From sequence record NC_005859.1: DNA of 64,000 nucleotides; one strand, written 5' to 3'. A program made the translations under genes and the position numbers. Numbering within the stretch: the first letter of the stretch is position 1; every line of letters begins with the position of its first letter. This stretch comes from Escherichia phage T5. The notes under the pieces were generated by a model. It did no database searches, was not told the origin of the DNA, and saw only the letters and a program-made list of their open reading frames with translations. Shown piece by piece: positions 1,795 through 59,710 of this stretch.

Positions 1795-4581
1795 GTGTTT
1801 TCTATCCTCCAAGGTCACGCCGGATTTTCTCGTGATTTAGCAACAGGTATTTGGCGAGAAATCAAAGCGGAAGATTATACCTTTGCCAAGCGATTCTCGA
1901 AAGAGCATCCAGAAGGTAAACCAGCTTCTATGCCCTTCAAATTTGATGTAATAGAAGAGCACGACCCACAAAGCCTTGCCGAAATGTTACCCCTCATGAG
2001 ACGTTTAACGTCTGACCCTCATATCGTTGCGGTGCGAGGTCGATGTCTCGCACCTAAAAATAATGTGCGACGTAAGAAAGGTAACTTTAATGTATCTAAT
2101 CCTAGTAATATTATTGCTATGGACGTGGATGGTATCCTAGATACCGGTGGGTATGACAAATTTAATCTTGTTGGTATGGCCCGCCACATTATTAAGATGT
2201 TGAATAGTATTAGTGAGGATATGTTTCCTCTTGATGCAGGGTTTATTGCTCATGCATCGTCTTCGGCTGGGCTAAAACCAGGTATCCGAATGCACTTAAT
2301 GCTAGAATCTAACGTCAAGGTAACTCAGGGTCAGCTAAAGTTCTTATTTACATCTATCAACGATAGTAGTAAGCAAAAATTTGGTTTTGATATTGCCGAC
2401 CTAGCTTATTATTCATCTGTCCAGCTCCACTATTTTGCCGACCCCTTATTTAGCGATGGTATTGTTGATCCGTTTAAAGCGGAGAGTAAGCCACGTCTGG
2501 TGTATGTTAAAGGTTCGAAAGTAAATTTGCCCAATAATCTGGTTGACTATGAAACAACTAGAGGGGAGTTTAAGGAAGAGTTTTATTCTTTACTTGATCA
2601 AATTAAAGGCAAAAAGATTGCTTCTGATAAAGTAGAAGAAACCATCAGCGAGTTAGAAGAGGCTGATGATGGAGTGTATTTGCGTATTATCCCCAAACTA
2701 TACCATAGAGCATTAGAGGATGGTGTTGATTTTGCATGGCTAGAACGTGAGATTAAACCAGCTTTATCTGAATATATTGCAACTAAAGATAACAGTCGTA
2801 ATATTCAAGATTACTTTAATAACGGTCGTAAGCAGGCTCTCAAAGCGTTTGTTAATAATTCTAAACGTGAGATTCCATTAAATCTGAAAGGTGTTCCACT
2901 TAAGAAATTAGAAGTGGATTCTCCACCAGAAGTTCCATACCTGAAGATTAACATTGTGCCCCCAAAAGGCCATATAACATTTGTTAAGGCAAGTCTTGGT
3001 ACTGGTAAAACTACGGCAGTAACTAAATGGCTGGACGCAGGTGTTCTTCCAGGCAACTTTTTAGCAGTTACAAATACTAGAGCACTGGTATCTTCAAATG
3101 CCAAGAAATTTAGTGCAGGACAATACGATAAGTCTGTAGATATGCTCAACTTTAAACGTGGAGCTATCGATCGTATGTCCACAACTATTCACTCTTTGCA
3201 TAAGTTCAAAAGTTTTATTGGGCAAATAGACACCATTTTTATTGATGAATGTGACGCTGTAATGAATGACCTATTATTCGCCCCTGTTGTTAAACAACGT
3301 CGCGAGTGTATTCAAGTTCTACGTGACATCCTTATGACAGCTAAGACTGTAATCTTATCCGATGGTGATATTAGTGCTGAGACGATTGAAGCATATGGTT
3401 CTCTAATTGATTTTGATAAACCAGTAGCATTTTATAATCATCACCGTAAAATGCTGTCAAAAGCACACGCTTATGAGTTTCCTGATGAATCCAGTATTTG
3501 GGTTGCACTTCAGACTTCTCTAGAGATGGGTGAGAAATCTATTCTAGTATCTGATTGTGGCCCGGATGAGCTGAATGAGAAGGGTATGGCACTGCGTCGT
3601 AATACGGGTGCGTTAGTTAAGGAAATCCATTCAAACTCCACCTCAGATGTGGATATTCGACGTATTCTGGATTATACAACTAATGAGCTAATTGATCAAC
3701 AAATTGATTGCTTATTATGTAGTCCATCCGTAACGAGTGGCGTTGACTTTAACTATTTCGATAATGTGTTTGTTATTACTAGAACCAGTAATCAAGCGCC
3801 AAACATGCGTTTCCAAGCAATCAGGCGCGACCGTGGTGCCCAGAACATCTATTATTTTATTGATAAATCTACGAGTGGATTCTCTGCAGGTTCTGAGCAA
3901 TATAATATTGATGAAGGTTGGCTGGAGTTAGCACAGCAATTATACGCACGTCGTAGAGAGCTGGAATCTAGAAACTATACTAGTACCTTACGTTATTATT
4001 TGCTTGATCAGGGTGCAACTATTGATATTTTCAGCGAAAGCTGGGGAACTATTGAAGGTGCTGGTAAAGAATATACAGAAGAGCGAATCAAAGCTATTCT
4101 GCATTCAACTCCAGATTATTGTGCCCCACGTCATGCAGATGCATATGAAGCTAAACTACTTCTTGTTCGCTATTATCATCTTGAGTCTATTAAAGATGTA
4201 ACAGTTGAGCATGTCGAACAATATATCAAAGATAAACCGAATGATCGAGCTGCATTCTTCCATAAGATGCACGAGATGTTCTGGGAAGATATTAAGAAGT
4301 GTTCAAATGTGACCATTAAACCATTCATAGAGGCTCTGAAAGGTAAGAAGAAAGACTTCTTCCTTAAAACAGGTCAGAGTGCCAACCCAAAATATGCTAG
4401 AATGTATCTTGGTATGATGGGTATTGGTAAGGATATGAACACTGAAAATATTGTAGACTGGTACAGAACCTATTGTAAAATCGAGTGTATGCCAATTCCT
4501 TTCAAATTCATGACAGAGGAAGAGAGGGCTATGGCAGAAGAAGTAATGTCCGAACTTGGAGCAACTAATGAAGATGCATAA
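1795..4581 (+). CDS. large P-loop ATPase, putative replication/origin-binding helicase-like protein
   Basis: 928-aa ORF, GTG start with RBS aggag; Walker A LGTGKTT; Walker-B-like FIDECD. Confidence 0.7.
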   Translation: MFSILQGHAGFSRDLATGIWREIKAEDYTFAKRFSKEHPEGKPASMPFKFDVIEEHDPQSLAEMLPLMRRLTSDPHIVAVRGRCLAPKNNVRRKKGNFNVSNPSNIIAMDVDGILDTGGYDKFNLVGMARHIIKMLNSISEDMFPLDAGFIAHASSSAGLKPGIRMHLMLESNVKVTQGQLKFLFTSINDSSKQKFGFDIADLAYYSSVQLHYFADPLFSDGIVDPFKAESKPRLVYVKGSKVNLPNNLVDYETTRGEFKEEFYSLLDQIKGKKIASDKVEETISELEEADDGVYLRIIPKLYHRALEDGVDFAWLEREIKPALSEYIATKDNSRNIQDYFNNGRKQALKAFVNNSKREIPLNLKGVPLKKLEVDSPPEVPYLKINIVPPKGHITFVKASLGTGKTTAVTKWLDAGVLPGNFLAVTNTRALVSSNAKKFSAGQYDKSVDMLNFKRGAIDRMSTTIHSLHKFKSFIGQIDTIFIDECDAVMNDLLFAPVVKQRRECIQVLRDILMTAKTVILSDGDISAETIEAYGSLIDFDKPVAFYNHHRKMLSKAHAYEFPDESSIWVALQTSLEMGEKSILVSDCGPDELNEKGMALRRNTGALVKEIHSNSTSDVDIRRILDYTTNELIDQQIDCLLCSPSVTSGVDFNYFDNVFVITRTSNQAPNMRFQAIRRDRGAQNIYYFIDKSTSGFSAGSEQYNIDEGWLELAQQLYARRRELESRNYTSTLRYYLLDQGATIDIFSESWGTIEGAGKEYTEERIKAILHSTPDYCAPRHADAYEAKLLLVRYYHLESIKDVTVEHVEQYIKDKPNDRAAFFHKMHEMFWEDIKKCSNVTIKPFIEALKGKKKDFFLKTGQSANPKYARMYLGMMGIGKDMNTENIVDWYRTYCKIECMPIPFKFMTEEERAMAEEVMSELGATNEDA

Positions 4582-5086
4582 ACCAATGCCTCCTATGGCA
4601 TTTATCCTAGAAAAGCTTAGGTATGACGAAAGTACCGGGGACTTAATTTGGTTATCTGGCCCAAGGAAGGGAAAGGTGGCGGGCTCCAAAATGAAAACTG
4701 GAAGACAGTTAGAGTTTACGATAAATGGGGAGCGGACAGCTTACTTAGCCCATAGAATAATCTGGTTTATAAAGACAGGCGAAGATCCTGGGGATAAAAC
4801 TATCGACCACAAAGACGGTGATAGTTTAAACAACTTGTGGGATAATTTACGTAAGGCTACCTATTCCGAAAATGGAAAGAATAAGAAGTGTTCTACTAAT
4901 TCTACCGGATTCACTGGAGTTGTAAAACGAGGTAATAGATATATGGCCTACGCTTACTGCGAGGGAAAGCAGCATATTTTTGGTAGACGAGATACCCCGG
5001 AAGAAGCCCATCAGCTATACCTTAGGGGAGTTAAAGAACTGTTTGGTGAATTTAATCCCTCGGAGAGATATGACAGTGAAGAATAA
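4556..5086 (+). CDS. HNH homing endonuclease with AP2-like DNA-binding domain
   Basis: 176 aa; AHRIIW...IDHKDGDSLNN..NLR.AT..EN HNH motif; C-terminal TGFTGV..RGNRYMAY AP2-like segment; start overlaps preceding gene. Confidence 0.75.
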   Translation: MEQLMKMHKPMPPMAFILEKLRYDESTGDLIWLSGPRKGKVAGSKMKTGRQLEFTINGERTAYLAHRIIWFIKTGEDPGDKTIDHKDGDSLNNLWDNLRKATYSENGKNKKCSTNSTGFTGVVKRGNRYMAYAYCEGKQHIFGRRDTPEEAHQLYLRGVKELFGEFNPSERYDSEE

Positions 5087-7613: not shown

Positions 7614-8585
7614 ATGACTAATGTAAAAGAATTTATTAAACGCTGTCAAGAAGCATATTATCAAGGCATGTCTTTAATCTCTGATGAAGAATATGATCGC
7701 CTGGTAAAACGCTTCCCGTTAGAGGAAGAGATCGGGCCTAAGGGTGATATTCCACATCTATATCGTATGTATTCTTTACAGAAAGTTTACTATAACCGTG
7801 GTGATAAACCACCATTCAATCCTTTAGGTCAGGTGGAAACCGATAAGTTAGATGGTTGTGCAATTTCTCTGCTATATATTAACGGCGAATTTGTTCAAGC
7901 ATTAACCCGCGGTAATGGTATTCTGGGGAATGATGTCACAAGCAACGTAAGATTGCTGAACATTCCTAAAAAGATTTCCCAAAAAGTACCTACTCAAATC
8001 ACTGGTGAAGTTCTAATTACAAAAGAAGTAGAAAATAAACGTAACTTTGCCTCTGGTGCTATTAACCTCAAAGATAGCGATGATTTCGTACAACGTATCG
8101 GGGAAGGTGGTTTAATCTTCGTTGCATACGGTATCCAGTGTTCTGCTGAATCTGTAGGTATTACAGAAGCATATTTAAAAGATATGCTTTGGCTAGAGAA
8201 TGAGAACTTCTTAACAGTTGTTAATGTGCGTTCCTTCTTTAAATGGATTCCGACGGACGGTAAAGTTGTTCGTATTAATGACAACAACAAATTCTTCCGT
8301 GAAGGCTGGACTAATAAATTCCCTCGTGGAGCATTCGCTATTAAAGAGGATGAAGAAGGCGAGATTACAACTCTTACTAAAGTTGAATGGCAGGTAGGGG
8401 CTTCGGGTAAAGTAACTCCAGTTGGTTATTTTGAACCGGTAATTATTGATGATGCTACAATTGTTAAAGCAACTCTTAATAACGTTGATTATATTAACTC
8501 TCTCGATCTAGAGATCGGTTGCCAGATTCGAGTGATTCGTGCTGGTGGTGTAATCCCGTGCATAGTAGAGCGAGTATACGATTAA
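7614..8585 (+). CDS. NAD-dependent DNA ligase, N-terminal part (adenylation and OB domains)
   Basis: 323 aa; LigA-like N-terminus and KLDG adenylation-lysine motif. Confidence 0.8.
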   Translation: MTNVKEFIKRCQEAYYQGMSLISDEEYDRLVKRFPLEEEIGPKGDIPHLYRMYSLQKVYYNRGDKPPFNPLGQVETDKLDGCAISLLYINGEFVQALTRGNGILGNDVTSNVRLLNIPKKISQKVPTQITGEVLITKEVENKRNFASGAINLKDSDDFVQRIGEGGLIFVAYGIQCSAESVGITEAYLKDMLWLENENFLTVVNVRSFFKWIPTDGKVVRINDNNKFFREGWTNKFPRGAFAIKEDEEGEITTLTKVEWQVGASGKVTPVGYFEPVIIDDATIVKATLNNVDYINSLDLEIGCQIRVIRAGGVIPCIVERVYD

Positions 8586-8757: not shown

Positions 8758-8787
8758 ATTTATATAAATTGATAAGGAAGAAATTTG

Positions 8788-9567
8788 ATGAAAATCGAAA
8801 TTCCAACACAATGTCCCTCTTGTGGTTCTAAGCTAGATCTTGTCAACGGACAATTATTCTGTCGTAATAAGTCCAACTGTCCAGCGCAATCAAGTAAGTT
8901 AATTGAGAACTTCTGTACAAAAATGAAGTTAAAGGGCTTTGGCCCGAAAACTATTGAGAAGCTGGAGCTGACGAAGATTTCAGAACTATTTTACCTAACC
9001 GAAGAAGATTTGGTTAGAGCCGTGGGTAGCAAGGTTGCCGCTAAGTTAATTAGCGAATTAAATACTAAAGTTCGCGGAGACATTGACTTTGGTTCAGTTC
9101 TCGGTTCTTTAGGAATCCCTCTAATTGGAGAGGTTGCAGCAAAGAAATTATCCCAAAATTGCACTAGCTTTCAAGATGTGAAGGCTGACGGCAAGGCTGG
9201 AGAAAACTATAAAGCCTGGCTAAATTCCCCACAAGGCAAGGATGTAATCGAATTACCGTGGAAATTCTCAAAGGGTATTAAGGGTGCTAAAGCTGAGGTC
9301 ATCATCACTGATGGTCTAGTAGCCCAGCCAAATGGAATCACGGTGTGTATTACCGGATCTTTGCAAGATTTTGCAAATCGAACGGATGCAACAAACTATT
9401 TAGAAGGTCTAGGATATACGGTTAAGAAATCCGTTACCAAAGACGTCAAATACCTAATCTGTGAGGATGAATCGAAGCGTTCTTCCTCATCTTATAAGAA
9501 AGCCGAAACGAATGGGATAGAAATCCTGTCGATTAAAGAACTATTGGAGAAAAATAATAATGTCTAA
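8788..9567 (+). CDS. NAD-dependent DNA ligase, C-terminal part (Zn finger, HhH, BRCT-like)
   Basis: Cys4 motif CPSCGS...CRNKSNCPAQ typical of LigA zinc finger; separate ORF about 200 bp after the N-terminal part. Confidence 0.75.
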   Translation: MKIEIPTQCPSCGSKLDLVNGQLFCRNKSNCPAQSSKLIENFCTKMKLKGFGPKTIEKLELTKISELFYLTEEDLVRAVGSKVAAKLISELNTKVRGDIDFGSVLGSLGIPLIGEVAAKKLSQNCTSFQDVKADGKAGENYKAWLNSPQGKDVIELPWKFSKGIKGAKAEVIITDGLVAQPNGITVCITGSLQDFANRTDATNYLEGLGYTVKKSVTKDVKYLICEDESKRSSSSYKKAETNGIEILSIKELLEKNNNV

Positions 9568-10327: not shown

Positions 10328-10358
10328 TCTGGTAAATTAAACCTAAGGGGAGGGGGCT

Positions 10359-11867
10359 ATGCTCCTTCCCCTTTTTGCATTTAGAAGGCACGAAAGCGTG
10401 CAAAGGAGAATGACCTTGTTTAACGTGCAAGCTGTAGTGTTGAAGATGCTTCTAGCTTCCGAACAGAAGCAAATAGCATTGGAAACATTCTCAAAACTGC
10501 ATAAAGATCATTTTAATGACGCTTTCTCCTCAATTTACCAAGCCGTCCAGAATTATTATAAAAAATATAACACAATGCCGTCCATTGACGCACTGATGCT
10601 TGAGGCTAATAGGAACGCCCGCCTTTCTCAAGCTCTAGTCGTTTTAGCTAACACTCAAATTCCAGAAGTTAGCATGGAACAGGCACTTGAAGTCCTAGAG
10701 GCCGAGTATACACAGGATTTATTCCTGAAGCTTCTAGAAACAGACGTGCTTCAAGATTTAACAATGCTGGATCAGGGAGAAATTCTTAACCGAGTTGCCT
10801 CCCTTCACTTAAAATTAGAAGAGAAAGTAACGAATACTGGAAAAGTATTCAACGCAGATAACATGCGTATTTTCCAGAGAGAAGAAGATACCAAACTGAA
10901 CTTAATCGCTCTTGGTATTTGTAATGAGTTCGACGCTCAAATTGGTTTAGCTCGCACAGAAACGTTACTGCTTGGTGGTTGGCGTGGTACTGGTAAATCC
11001 ATTATCTGTTCAAACATACAGGTTGGAGATATTGCTCCATACTTCTCAATTGAGATGAAAGAACATGAAGTATTTAGACGTAATCTAGCCATGTTAGCTG
11101 GTGTATCAGCACTAGCAATGCGAAATAATACTCTAGAAGGTGCAGCTCTGTTGAGATTAGCCAGAACTAGAGCTAGAATGTTTAACGGTGGTGAAGAGCT
11201 TTTCGATAACTTCGTTAAACAATACACAATGGCTAAGATGAGTGATTTCTACGATATGGAAAGTAAGCTAATAGAAGGATATGAGCTACATACTCCTATG
11301 ATTATTGTTTATGATCCTGAGCTGTCTATTACAACAGTTGACGTAGAATTAAATAAATTAGTTGCTAGATATGGGGATAAAGTTACAGTAGCTTTACTTG
11401 ACTATATTAACCAAACCCGACTTCCAGATTCTAAAACCATTGATATGTATGACTGGAAAGAACAGATGGTTGTTAGCTCGTCTTTCAAATCCATCTGCCA
11501 GAAACATAACGTGGCTGGTGTAGCTCCTTACCAGATTGATCAAGATGGTAGAACACGTATGTCAAAAGGGATTCTTGATTCCGCAGACATGGCTGCTAAT
11601 CTTAATGCTGCAAAAGCTGATAATGGTCAAGGTGCTATTATGTTTGACTTCGTTAAGACCCGTTCTTCTGATAGCGTGAAGTTTATGCCTAAAATGAACT
11701 GGGAAACCCTGCGGATGGATAACACTACCAACCTAGCAATGGAAGATATATCTCAAATGGAAGCTGAGTTCGTTATCCCTATTGAGAAGGATAAGCCGGC
11801 TCAATCTAAACGTGCTAAGAAAGACAAAGCTGAAAATTCAACAGGTGAACAGGCCAGCGATATATGA
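10359..11867 (+). CDS. DnaB-like replicative helicase
   Basis: Walker A GGWRGTGKS; RecA-like C-terminal half; exact start uncertain (10359 has ggagg RBS, alternatives 10410/10416). Confidence 0.75.
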   Translation: MLLPLFAFRRHESVQRRMTLFNVQAVVLKMLLASEQKQIALETFSKLHKDHFNDAFSSIYQAVQNYYKKYNTMPSIDALMLEANRNARLSQALVVLANTQIPEVSMEQALEVLEAEYTQDLFLKLLETDVLQDLTMLDQGEILNRVASLHLKLEEKVTNTGKVFNADNMRIFQREEDTKLNLIALGICNEFDAQIGLARTETLLLGGWRGTGKSIICSNIQVGDIAPYFSIEMKEHEVFRRNLAMLAGVSALAMRNNTLEGAALLRLARTRARMFNGGEELFDNFVKQYTMAKMSDFYDMESKLIEGYELHTPMIIVYDPELSITTVDVELNKLVARYGDKVTVALLDYINQTRLPDSKTIDMYDWKEQMVVSSSFKSICQKHNVAGVAPYQIDQDGRTRMSKGILDSADMAANLNAAKADNGQGAIMFDFVKTRSSDSVKFMPKMNWETLRMDNTTNLAMEDISQMEAEFVIPIEKDKPAQSKRAKKDKAENSTGEQASDI

Positions 11868-12397
11868 TAACACAGGAAAGGCTAAAAGAGTTATTTGATT
11901 ACTCCCCAGGAACTGGGGAGTTTACTAGAAAAGTATCTAGAGGTAATCAGAAAGCTGGTAGTATAGTAACCAGAAAAGACTCTAACGGTTATATAATTAT
12001 TGGTATAGATGGCAAGGATTACAAAGCCCATCGGATGGCTTTTCTATTTATGGAAAATACATTACCGGAAAAAGTAGACCATGTAAATAGAATACCCTTT
12101 GATAATAGGTGGTGTAATCTAAGAGATGCCACAGCCCAGGAAAATAGTAGAAATAAAACCGCATGTAGTAAGTCTGGATACTTGGGAGTTGCTTGGGATA
12201 TCGAAAAACAAAGATGGAGAGTTCAGGTAAGAGACTCTAATAGCACTCTTAAAAATGGTGGCAGATTTAAGTATGAGGAGCTAGAGCTAGCTGTAAATTC
12301 AGCAAATATACTAAGGACTAAGTTACATGGAGAACGTGCTGTTATAGAAATTTTTGATACATCTAATTATCCTTCACTGGAGGAGTTAAATTCATGA
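11864..12397 (+). CDS. HNH homing endonuclease with AP2-like domain
   Basis: 177 aa; AHRMAF...VDHVNRIPFDNRWCNLR..T..EN HNH motif; YLGVAWD...RWRVQV AP2-like; ATGA overlaps with both neighbours. Confidence 0.75.
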   Translation: MITQERLKELFDYSPGTGEFTRKVSRGNQKAGSIVTRKDSNGYIIIGIDGKDYKAHRMAFLFMENTLPEKVDHVNRIPFDNRWCNLRDATAQENSRNKTACSKSGYLGVAWDIEKQRWRVQVRDSNSTLKNGGRFKYEELELAVNSANILRTKLHGERAVIEIFDTSNYPSLEELNS

Positions 12398-13284
12398 GTC
12401 GAATAACAGAATTACTTGATCTTAAGGGAATTGAGTATAAAGATACTGGTGGAGATATTTTAATCTGTTGTCTCAATCCAGATCATGACGATAAACACCC
12501 AAGTTTGCGTATTGACCCTGAAACAGGTATTATGCACTGCTTGAGTTGTGGCTTCGGTAAAGGTATACCGAGCATTTACCATTATTTTAATGAGACTCAG
12601 TACCGACAGTCCCCAAGGCTATCGCAAGTACGTAAAAAGATTTCAGAGATTAGGAATGGATCAACGAATCTTGCAATTCCTGAATCTGCTTACCTTTTCG
12701 AAGGTGATTTCCGAGGTATAAGTTCTAAGACCTTGAAGAAATATTTTGCTTTCCAACACCAAGCAGACTGGGAAGGCAGAATTGTATTCCCAATCACAGA
12801 TGCTGTTGGACGCAATATCCTATTTTTGGGTCGTTCTATAAACAGTTCTGCCCCTCCTAAATACTTAGTAAAACCAAAACAAGTTTCACCACCAATTTTT
12901 CCTGTACGATATAATACTCCGGTTCTTATTCTAGTTGAAGGCATCTTTGATATGCTGAACCTAGAGGATAATGGTATAGACTATGCTTCTTGCTGCTTTG
13001 GTACACATCAGTTTACTTCGGATAACATTGCAGATAAGTTCAGTCCTTATATTATTGCCGGTGTAAAAGTTGTTGTTATCTTACTAGATAATGATGCTTC
13101 TGGTAATAAAGCTGCACAAGCATTGGCCAAGCTAATTCGTACAAAAACGCGTTTAACACCTGTAGTTGCTAACTTTCTTCTGCCTGAAGGTAAAGACCCG
13201 GGTGACTTAAATAAAGAAGAGATTGATACGTTAGCAAAACGTATTGAAATTTTAGTTGCTGAATCGCTTAAAGATTTGGTATAA
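12394..13284 (+). CDS. DNA primase (CHC2 zinc finger plus Toprim)
   Basis: C..NPDH...H..LSCGFGKG zinc finger; Toprim-like ILVEGIFD and LLDNDASG motifs. Confidence 0.8.
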   Translation: MSRITELLDLKGIEYKDTGGDILICCLNPDHDDKHPSLRIDPETGIMHCLSCGFGKGIPSIYHYFNETQYRQSPRLSQVRKKISEIRNGSTNLAIPESAYLFEGDFRGISSKTLKKYFAFQHQADWEGRIVFPITDAVGRNILFLGRSINSSAPPKYLVKPKQVSPPIFPVRYNTPVLILVEGIFDMLNLEDNGIDYASCCFGTHQFTSDNIADKFSPYIIAGVKVVVILLDNDASGNKAAQALAKLIRTKTRLTPVVANFLLPEGKDPGDLNKEEIDTLAKRIEILVAESLKDLV

Positions 13285-59191: not shown

Positions 59192-59710
59192 TTAATTGAC
59201 AATTCCAAATTCAGCTTTTTTAGTTTCTACCCATAATAATAACTCTTGTAAATCATAACCTGATTTACTAACACTTTTGTTACTAGTAGGATCTTTAACT
59301 ATAGCGCGCAAATAGTTTCTTCCGTTATTATCAACTCTAGAACCATTATAATAGATATGCTTAGGCAACTTATTAGCACGCTTATAATCTTTCTTGTTAT
59401 TCATATTCTGCTTATGGTCTACTAAGCGAAGATTATTAATGTTATTATTAGCACGGTTACGATCATTATGATCGATTGTTAGATTGCTATCAATCTCACC
59501 ATTAAATAATACCCATATTATTCTATGCACTGCGTATTGTTCGCCTGCTAACTTTACTCGATAGTAACCTGTGTTACTATAATGCCCTGCAATATCACCC
59601 ACCTTACTATTACCTTTCTGTACTTTCCATCTTAGAAATGATGGGGATGTTTCATCATAATAAAAGTTATCATTAGCAAGCGAATAATCTATATCTTTAA
59701 ATAGACCCAT
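59192..59710 (-). CDS. HNH homing endonuclease with AP2-like domain
   Basis: 172 aa; AVHRIIW...IDHNDRNRANNNINNLR...HKQN HNH motif; third member of the family at 4556 and 11864. Confidence 0.7.
   Translation of the reverse strand: MGLFKDIDYSLANDNFYYDETSPSFLRWKVQKGNSKVGDIAGHYSNTGYYRVKLAGEQYAVHRIIWVLFNGEIDSNLTIDHNDRNRANNNINNLRLVDHKQNMNNKKDYKRANKLPKHIYYNGSRVDNNGRNYLRAIVKDPTSNKSVSKSGYDLQELLLWVETKKAEFGIVN

Follow-up and report, generated by a model that had tools for sequence, protein, structure and literature searches.

A predicted HNH_3-AP2 homing endonuclease gene at the helicase–primase overlap of phage T5, with a candidate target in the synonymously re-coded start of primase

The stretch of Escherichia phage T5 DNA that we analyzed (64,000 nucleotides [nt] of sequence record NC_005859.1, hereafter the window) carries an intact 177-codon open reading frame (ORF), starting with ATG, between the genes for a replicative helicase and for primase. 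Its sequence and distribution indicate that it is most probably a free-standing HNH_3-AP2 homing endonuclease gene inserted at the overlap of these two genes, with a predicted target in primase. The original prediction, made from the DNA letters, had described an ORF at 11864-12397 with 4-nt ATGA overlaps at both ends, which is confirmed by the ORF listing of the window and by the sequence: the helicase gene ends ...GAT ATA TGA, with the endonuclease ATG at 11864 within it, and the endonuclease gene ends ...AAT TCA TGA, with the primase ATG at 12394 within it. The gene had also been described as wedged between helicase and primase and as HNH-AP2 in architecture. The neighbors do match DnaB_C on one side and Zn_ribbon_DnaG, DNAG_N, and Toprim on the other, and the architecture holds as well, with HNH_3 above its Pfam threshold and AP2 recognized through homologs, a structure model, and Foldseek. 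The gene is not new to annotation, and many records already list it as an HNH or homing endonuclease. In T5 st0, it is T5p118, [quoted passage not shown] and relatives label it "HNH homing endonuclease," "putative H-N-H-endonuclease P-TflX," or "F-TflVIII family." The name hegJ / P-TflX could not be confirmed for T5's own gene, the label coming from annotations of relatives, and a literature search on P-TflX, hegJ, and F-TflVIII turned up nothing relevant to the gene. What is new here is the exact empty site, an occupancy figure, the allele classes, and a predicted target/immunity tract.

We built a synthetic empty site by fusing helicase, through …GATAT, directly to ATGAGTCG… of primase. This sequence finds a single uninterrupted 547-nt match in BF23, DT57C, SPC35, pork27, and many other phages, and it splits into two matches 530 nt apart in T5, SP15, Gostya9, and similar phages. 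When a 50-nt junction probe was compared with 434 T5-like records, RefSeq/GenBank near-duplicates included, it was contiguous in 364 (e.g., BF23, DT57C, and SPC35), while only its left 29 nt matched in 70. The insert is thus carried by ~16% of T5-like records, and ~84% are without it. This is the junction comparison that had been proposed along with the original prediction, and it reveals a gene that is clearly not universal at this site, with seamless insert-free relatives in large numbers. Junctions were read base by base in ~42 loci. In every carrier read in this way, the insert lies at the identical position with both ATGA overlaps, and no remnant of it was seen at the insert-free junctions among these loci; in 3sent1, the gene is intact at the same site though unannotated. 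Since the insert-free allele has a single ATGA between helicase and primase, the ATG of which is the primase start, the insert (530 nt, or 527 in one class) is bounded by a duplicated ATGA, and its overlaps are no accident.

More distant relatives point in the same direction. In almost all of those examined (40+ IMG/VR contigs with 36-72% primase identity, Klebsiella phage Sealy, and Yersinia phage phiR2-01), helicase abuts primase, and the endonuclease gene was found in none of them. This adjacency argues that the empty state is ancestral. Contigs L081 and L071/L072/L076 have an unrelated insert or a gap at the helicase–primase junction. In L081 (744-1526; IMG/VR contig 3300048672_000414), a 260-residue GIY-YIG ORF, preceded by three small ORFs, overlaps the primase start, which suggests that the junction is a recurrent landing site. 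As regards the insertion itself, the endonuclease start (11864-11880, ATGATAACACAGGAA) and the primase start (12394-12412, ATGAGTCGAATAACAGAA) have in common ATGA plus ATAACA(C)AG(G)AA, a microhomology that could be either chance or a trace of the original illegitimate insertion. A comparison by eye of the endonuclease 3' tail with the helicase 3' end, for signs of a target duplication, gave only a short AAATTCA match that is probably due to chance.

The endonuclease protein matches HNH_3 (PF13392) over amino acids (aa) 53-96, with an expect value (E) of 6e-8 and 32.6 bits against a cutoff of 24.8, covering profile positions 1-46 of 46. It also matches PHROG 99, "HNH endonuclease" (E 1e-57). 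Across 48 aligned homologs, H73, N85, and N97 never vary, and conservation of D72 and N94 is 90% or more; the catalytic D-H/N/N residues are intact in all 16 alleles of the site that we tabulated. Judged from the alignment, D72-H73…N85…N94/N97 is the D-H…N…N pattern of I-HmuI-type enzymes. In the AlphaFold2 model (predicted local distance difference test score 92.6), the HNH region has strands at 70-73 and 86-89 and a helix at 91-95, and the C-terminal domain has strands at 109-112, 117-123, and 129-135 and a long helix at 137-158. Because the direct Pfam match of the T5 protein to AP2 (PF00847) is below threshold (16.1 vs. 33.3 bits, E 0.015-0.03, profile positions 2-37 only), we turned to homologs and to the model. 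AP2 is matched at E ≤ 1e-3 by 31 of the 48 aligned full-length homologs (best 7e-13), and in the PDB, Foldseek ranks AP2/ERF domains from plants and Plasmodium highest, namely WRINKLED1 (7wq5), TEM1 (7et5, probability 1.00), AtERF1 (1gcc, template-modeling score 0.75 normalized to target, probability 1.00), AtERF96 (5wx9), and PfAP2 (3igm). A search of the PDB by sequence returned only spurious weak matches (lectin and biotin ligase). The homologs and the confident model thus support the assignment of the C-terminal domain as a diverged AP2 domain. Homing endonucleases that combine HNH_3 with AP2 have been described before (PMC5714182, group 2; PMC10448857, citing Magnani 2004). The C-terminal tail is absent from homologs elsewhere, since other family members in the alignment end soon after HGE(F)A.

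All 16 tabulated alleles and the 3sent1 copy are intact. Within the T5 class, the ratio of nonsynonymous to synonymous substitutions per site (dN/dS) is 0.02-0.08, at dS of 0.1-0.8, which means that the ORF is coding and that selection preserves the endonuclease protein. There are three allele classes at the one site (T5-type; VAH1/S132/NR01-type; ev219/8sent1748/3sent1-type), plus recombinants, and between classes identity is ~69-72% for nucleotides and ~62-66% for protein, as compared to 88-99% for the flanking genes. The divergence is unevenly distributed. Codons 1-33 show 83-100% nucleotide identity in every 10-codon window in all classes, which drops to 47-59% immediately after, and between T5 and VAH1 dS is 0 in codons 1-33 and 1.56 in codons 34-160. 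The end of codon 33 thus appears to mark a recombination boundary inside the gene. Between classes, the nuclease and AP2 cores are 33-80% identical at the nucleotide level, with the AP2-like region the most divergent part (33-67%), whereas the first 33 codons and the 3' tail are constant. Some alleles are mosaic. The polluks allele is T5-type to approximately codon 110 and different beyond, and the H8 and SHSML-45 alleles contain a short VAH1-type patch (HINRIRS).

The gene and its flanks have discordant divergences, as judged from dS and from identity profiles (nucleotide identities in the case of helicase). For VAH1, a Tequintavirus, and S132, an Epseptimavirus, dS is 0.049 in the endonuclease gene and 0.29 in the primase body, and for HdH2 and H8 the values are 0.046 and 0.395. 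An endonuclease gene that is near-identical between phages with diverged flanks indicates recent transfer. VAH1 and S132 are 96-100% identical between the insert and a point ~570 nt into primase and 88-91% identical beyond it, and upstream the figure is 84-95% over the last ~800 nt of helicase, a profile that looks like co-conversion around a homing event. Taken together, the empty sites, the ancestral adjacency of helicase and primase, and the discordance between gene and flanks lend support to the mobile homing endonuclease insertion that had originally been proposed.

Carriers and insert-free phages also differ in the start of primase. Between T5 and BF23, there are 13 differences in primase nt 1-78, all of them synonymous. 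The other 813 nt of the gene have 10 differences, and the final 800 nt of helicase also have 10, none of them in its last 200 nt. This clustering is highly significant (13/78 nt vs. 20/1613 nt of flanks; Fisher p 4e-10). In the core of the tract (primase nt 51-69), T5 reads GAT ACT GGT GGA GAT ATT TTA and insert-free phages read GAC ACA GGT GGG GAC ATC CTC. In all 18 carriers examined, primase codons 1-26 are re-coded by synonymous changes only, in one of five versions (T5-type; GSP044/SP01; HdH2/H8/SHSML-45/phiAPCEc03; NR01; polluks). These five versions differ from one another and are all altered at nt 51, 66, and 69, carriers always reading GAT … ATT YTW. In contrast, the insert-free loci (24/24 distinct ones) have essentially one version, and its core, GGT GGG GAY ATC CTC, is also present in the insert-free phages Sealy and phiR2-01. 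A 70-nt probe of the insert-free tract matches 355 records at ≥95% identity, and among the carriers listed none exceeds 86%.

Several properties of this tract are of interest with regard to a target. It encodes D-T-G-G-D-I-L-I-C-C, a conserved motif just before the zinc ribbon of primase, and homing endonucleases such as T4 Seg and Mob usually target conserved motifs (PMC2330249). Re-coding lowers its guanine-plus-cytosine (G+C) content from 0.44-0.56 to 0.28-0.42, in keeping with a report that AP2 domains favor GC-rich sites (PMC10448857). When carrier subtypes are compared, this tract of only 26 codons has a saturated dS (>1.2), vs. ~0.4 for the endonuclease gene, and it therefore changes faster than expected from simple hitch-hiking. 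On balance, we lean toward a candidate recognition/cleavage site ~50-70 nt inside insert-free primase, from which carriers would be protected by synonymous re-coding. A more tentative idea, to which we give considerably less credence, is that the junction is the scene of an ongoing arms race, in which swapped nuclease/AP2 cores and repeated re-coding (of primase codons 17-25, synonymously and at least five times over) would stem from round after round of escape at the target and altered specificity. If so, one endonuclease class would displace another by cutting a previously immune tract, and the constant ends of the gene (first 33 codons and 3' tail) would be built-in homology arms for cassette exchange.

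How the insert is accommodated in the operon can be read from its ends. The endonuclease ATG is the former primase ATG and has the same weak Shine-Dalgarno context (AGGTGA, 13 nt upstream), while a GGAGGAG encoded in the endonuclease tail lies 8 nt ahead of the new primase start. The motif (C/T)T(G/A)GAGGAG…TCATGA is kept in all alleles at the site, which suggests that the element preserves, and may even improve, primase initiation. The T5 st0 annotation places no promoter between helicase and primase, and a consensus scan found no enrichment of promoter-like sites (10 found vs. 9.6 expected). Translational coupling on both sides would fit with the two observations on which it is based, the conserved 4-nt overlaps and the lack of an annotated promoter. 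The stretch of the endonuclease gene that codes for the AHRMAF motif (12023-12042, codons 54-60) contains a weak terminator-like hairpin, with a stem of 6 base pairs (bp) and a T-rich run after it. This hairpin should be weaker in the other allele classes, which have AHQLAF at this position.

The scenario that we consider most probable is as follows. The gene would have entered a T5-like phage at the 4 nt shared by the helicase stop and the primase start. It is presumably transcribed with the early replication operon, and its 3' tail would supply both the GGAGGAG ribosome-binding site and the ATGA overlap for primase, so that the essential genes stay expressed. During mixed infection, the AP2 domain would bind the relatively G+C-rich GGT GGG GAY ATC CTC ~55-70 nt into insert-free primase, just before the zinc-ribbon cysteines, and the enzyme would nick or cut nearby. 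Recombinational repair from a carrier would then transfer the endonuclease gene along with more or less of the adjoining primase sequence, and carrier genomes would be protected via synonymous re-coding of ATC CTC to ATT YTW. Enzymatic activity, the location of the target, homing, and translational coupling are predictions from sequence.

A number of points weigh against this scenario, or against parts of it. The record counts are inflated by the near-duplicates and do not represent independent events, and the association of tract with insert status was read base by base in the ~42 loci and otherwise from identity bands. The T5 protein itself falls short of the AP2 threshold. We found no cleavage, nicking, or homing assay of this protein in the searchable literature, and only three T5 HNH enzymes have been characterized, all in the tRNA region (PMC3326045). 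As for the tract, its versions do not correspond one-to-one to endonuclease classes, the T5-type tract being found with all three, and it might have come along passively with donor DNA instead of conferring immunity. Furthermore, with a recognition site lying across the insertion point, carriers would be protected simply by having the insert. Such a site across the helicase–primase junction, destroyed by insertion, with the tract reflecting passive co-conversion or an adaptation of the primase initiation region, is possible, although we view it as doubtful. GSP044 and SP01 carry the insert yet have primase nt 7-42 of the insert-free type, co-conversion tracts of variable length are evident, and the first codons of a gene do influence translation initiation. 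However, passive acquisition sits poorly with five independent versions that all alter nt 51, 66, and 69 while differing elsewhere, with a tract dS exceeding that of the endonuclease gene, and with a core that is unchanged in insert-free phages of three further genera.

Other explanations concern the role of the gene as a whole. I-HmuI is a nickase, and T5 DNA is nicked at specific sites, so the endonuclease might be what introduces the site-specific single-strand nicks into T5 virion DNA, in which case it would have an ordinary role in the phage and not be a selfish element. Although I-HmuI-type HNH_3 enzymes in general are nickases (PMC5714182), we deem this extremely unlikely and rejected the gene as the virion nicking enzyme, since BF23, the DNA of which has multiple specific nicks according to a passage in PMC10644984, is without the gene, as are ~84% of T5-like phages. 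It is very unlikely, too, that the gene is ancestral at the site in T5-like phages and was cleanly deleted in most lineages. The duplicated ATGA could mediate precise deletion, and the alleles are old (dS up to >1 between classes), but the outgroups examined (the Klebsiella and Yersinia phages and the 40+ IMG/VR contigs) are without the gene, the 364 insert-free junctions are contiguous with no remnant in those read base by base, and the divergences of gene and flanks are discordant. We rejected this possibility on the outgroup evidence. Finally, a former homing endonuclease might have become immobile and domesticated, either excluding competing phages without being copied or acting as an AP2-type regulator of the replication operon. 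Strong purifying selection would be expected in this case, as would the tight operon integration, with the primase ribosome-binding site embedded in the endonuclease tail, and there are cases elsewhere in which the AP2 domain of such a gene has been recruited for regulation (PMC10448857). Nevertheless, domestication is unlikely given that 1) the gene is absent from ~84% of close relatives, which replicate normally, 2) the catalytic D-H/N/N residues are intact in all alleles, and 3) the endonuclease is near-identical between phages with diverged flanks, indicating recent transfer. A mobile homing endonuclease gene with a predicted target in primase is the explanation that we prefer.

The features of the locus are listed in Table 1.

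Table 1. Features of the helicase–endonuclease–primase locus (window coordinates)
Feature	Coordinates	Strand	Basis
Helicase, DnaB-like replicative (upstream neighbor)	10359..11867	+	Longest ORF; DnaB_C match; T5 st0 "putative replicative DNA helicase"
Left junction ATGA	11864..11867	+	Helicase stop TGA over endonuclease ATG; same in every carrier examined
HNH-AP2 endonuclease gene, free-standing, predicted homing, 177 aa	11864..12397	+	ORF, Pfam, PHROG, presence/absence, dN/dS
Endonuclease first 33 codons	11864..11962	+	Near-constant across allele classes
HNH_3 (putative beta-beta-alpha-metal) predicted nuclease core, aa 53-96	12020..12151	+	Pfam match, conserved residues, model
AP2-like predicted DNA-binding domain, aa ~105-160	12176..12343	+	Homologs, model, Foldseek; weak Pfam match
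Endonuclease C-terminal tail (…IEIFDTSNYPSLEELNS; …SLEELNS)	12344..12397	+	Alignment of homologs
Shine-Dalgarno-like GGAGGAG within endonuclease tail	12379-12385	+	Precedes primase start
Right junction ATGA	12394..12397	+	Endonuclease stop over primase ATG
Primase, DnaG-type, CHC2 zinc ribbon + Toprim	12394..13284	+	Zn_ribbon_DnaG, DNAG_N, Toprim matches; annotated primase in T5 and relatives
Synonymously re-coded tract, primase nt 7-78	12400..12471	+	Carrier vs. insert-free comparison
Core of re-coded tract, primase nt 51-69	12444-12462	+	Candidate recognition/cleavage site

The window is 99.5% identical to T5 st0 over 2.9 kilobases, and IMG/VR contig L016 encodes helicase, endonuclease, and primase proteins that are 100% identical to those of the window. 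Relative to the helicases of T5 st0, BF23, and the other T5-like phages compared, the window helicase is without 15 nt (5 aa, QQYLN) at 11023/11024, just past the Walker A motif GTGKS, and is 502 instead of 507 aa long. The L016 helicase, which matches that of the window without a gap, apparently shares this difference, for which either an in-frame deletion peculiar to the strain or an error of sequencing in that record might be responsible. A strong terminator-like hairpin at 10345-10373 (13-bp stem with 8 GC pairs, followed by a T run) overlaps the helicase ATG at 10359 and may terminate the upstream D5 transcription unit. Helicase is annotated as shorter (1467 nt) in some relatives, and its true start may be the ATG at 10410. 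In T5 record AY587007 (L093, 2021-2245), the endonuclease is annotated as a truncated 225-nt ORF111, followed by a ~300-nt gap before primase, the likely cause being a frameshift or a difference in sequencing with respect to the window and T5 st0. Downstream, BF23 (L003, 2692-3021), VAH1, and GSP044 have a 330-nt hypothetical ORF between primase and DNA polymerase, which is absent from T5, DT57C, and SPC35.

The window contains two more free-standing HNH_3 genes, at 4556-5086 on the plus strand (176 aa, Pfam E 1e-12), overlapping the end of a 928-aa ORF, and at 59192-59710 on the minus strand (172 aa, E 2e-15). Their products are distant paralogs of the 11864-12397 protein, with 29-36% identity to it in partial alignments. 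In VSe12, Shivani, SHSML-45, EH7, vB_SLGBLB0002, and R2, "HNH homing endonuclease (x2)" is annotated under the match, and similarity to T5 begins 58 nt into the helicase ORF, which suggests a second endonuclease gene just upstream of helicase. The NAD-dependent DNA ligase is split into two ORFs, 7614-8585 (adenylation and OB) and 8785-9567 (HhH and BRCT), ~200 nt apart, the gap holding annotated promoters in T5 st0. The split might conceivably be the scar of an earlier mobile-element insertion. Approximately nine homing endonuclease genes have been predicted in T5 (PMC3326045). A passage in PMC10644984 attributes differences among T5-like phages largely to such genes, and their patchy content in these phages is documented in passages of PMC10644984, PMC3326045, and PMC12639943.

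As a discovery, the gene carries little weight, since it is a known kind of element in a well-studied phage. What the analysis offers, all of it predicted, is a ~20-nt candidate recognition core (GGT GGG GAY ATC CTC, primase codons 19-23), together with natural immune variants and natural substrates (BF23 and DT57C). If confirmed, these would amount to a new HNH-AP2 specificity and to a clean case of self-immunity via purely synonymous re-coding of an essential gene.

Among known systems, the HNH_3 plus AP2 homing endonucleases (His-Me finger group 2, I-HmuI-like; ICP1 "IPA-HNH," PMC10448857) are the closest in architecture, with an N-terminal HNH_3 bearing D-H…N…N and a C-terminal AP2, and they too are small (~160-180 aa), phage-borne, and free-standing. 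In the T5 protein, however, AP2 is below the Pfam threshold and is known from sequence and model, and alleles at this site add a ~17-aa tail that encodes the ribosome-binding site of the neighboring gene. The three characterized T5 HNH enzymes (PMC3326045, PMC2330249) come from the same phage and are likewise free-standing HNH proteins regarded as homing endonucleases. While these are in the tRNA gene cluster and have demonstrated site-specific activity, the 11864-12397 gene is in the replication operon and is a predicted enzyme. MobE (nrdA/nrdB) and T5 P-TflVIII (nrdA/nrdB; PMC3326045) also exemplify an HNH gene between two linked essential genes, at a recurrent hotspot, but the locus is a different one and the relationship is that of a distant paralog.

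Intronless homing by free-standing T4-type phage endonucleases has reportedly been treated by Edgell, Gibb, and Belfort in 2010. Like SegF, SegG, SegB, and MobE (PMC2330249), the T5 gene is inserted between or beside conserved essential genes and is patchily distributed, its predicted target is in a neighboring gene, tens of nt from the insertion point, carriers are protected by sequence differences (as predicted here), and flanking markers are co-converted. The T4-type set belongs mostly to other nuclease families, Seg being GIY-YIG and MobE a different HNH type. What sets the T5 gene apart from them is that both of its junctions are exact 4-nt overlaps and that the apparent protection of carriers is by purely synonymous re-coding, in five versions.

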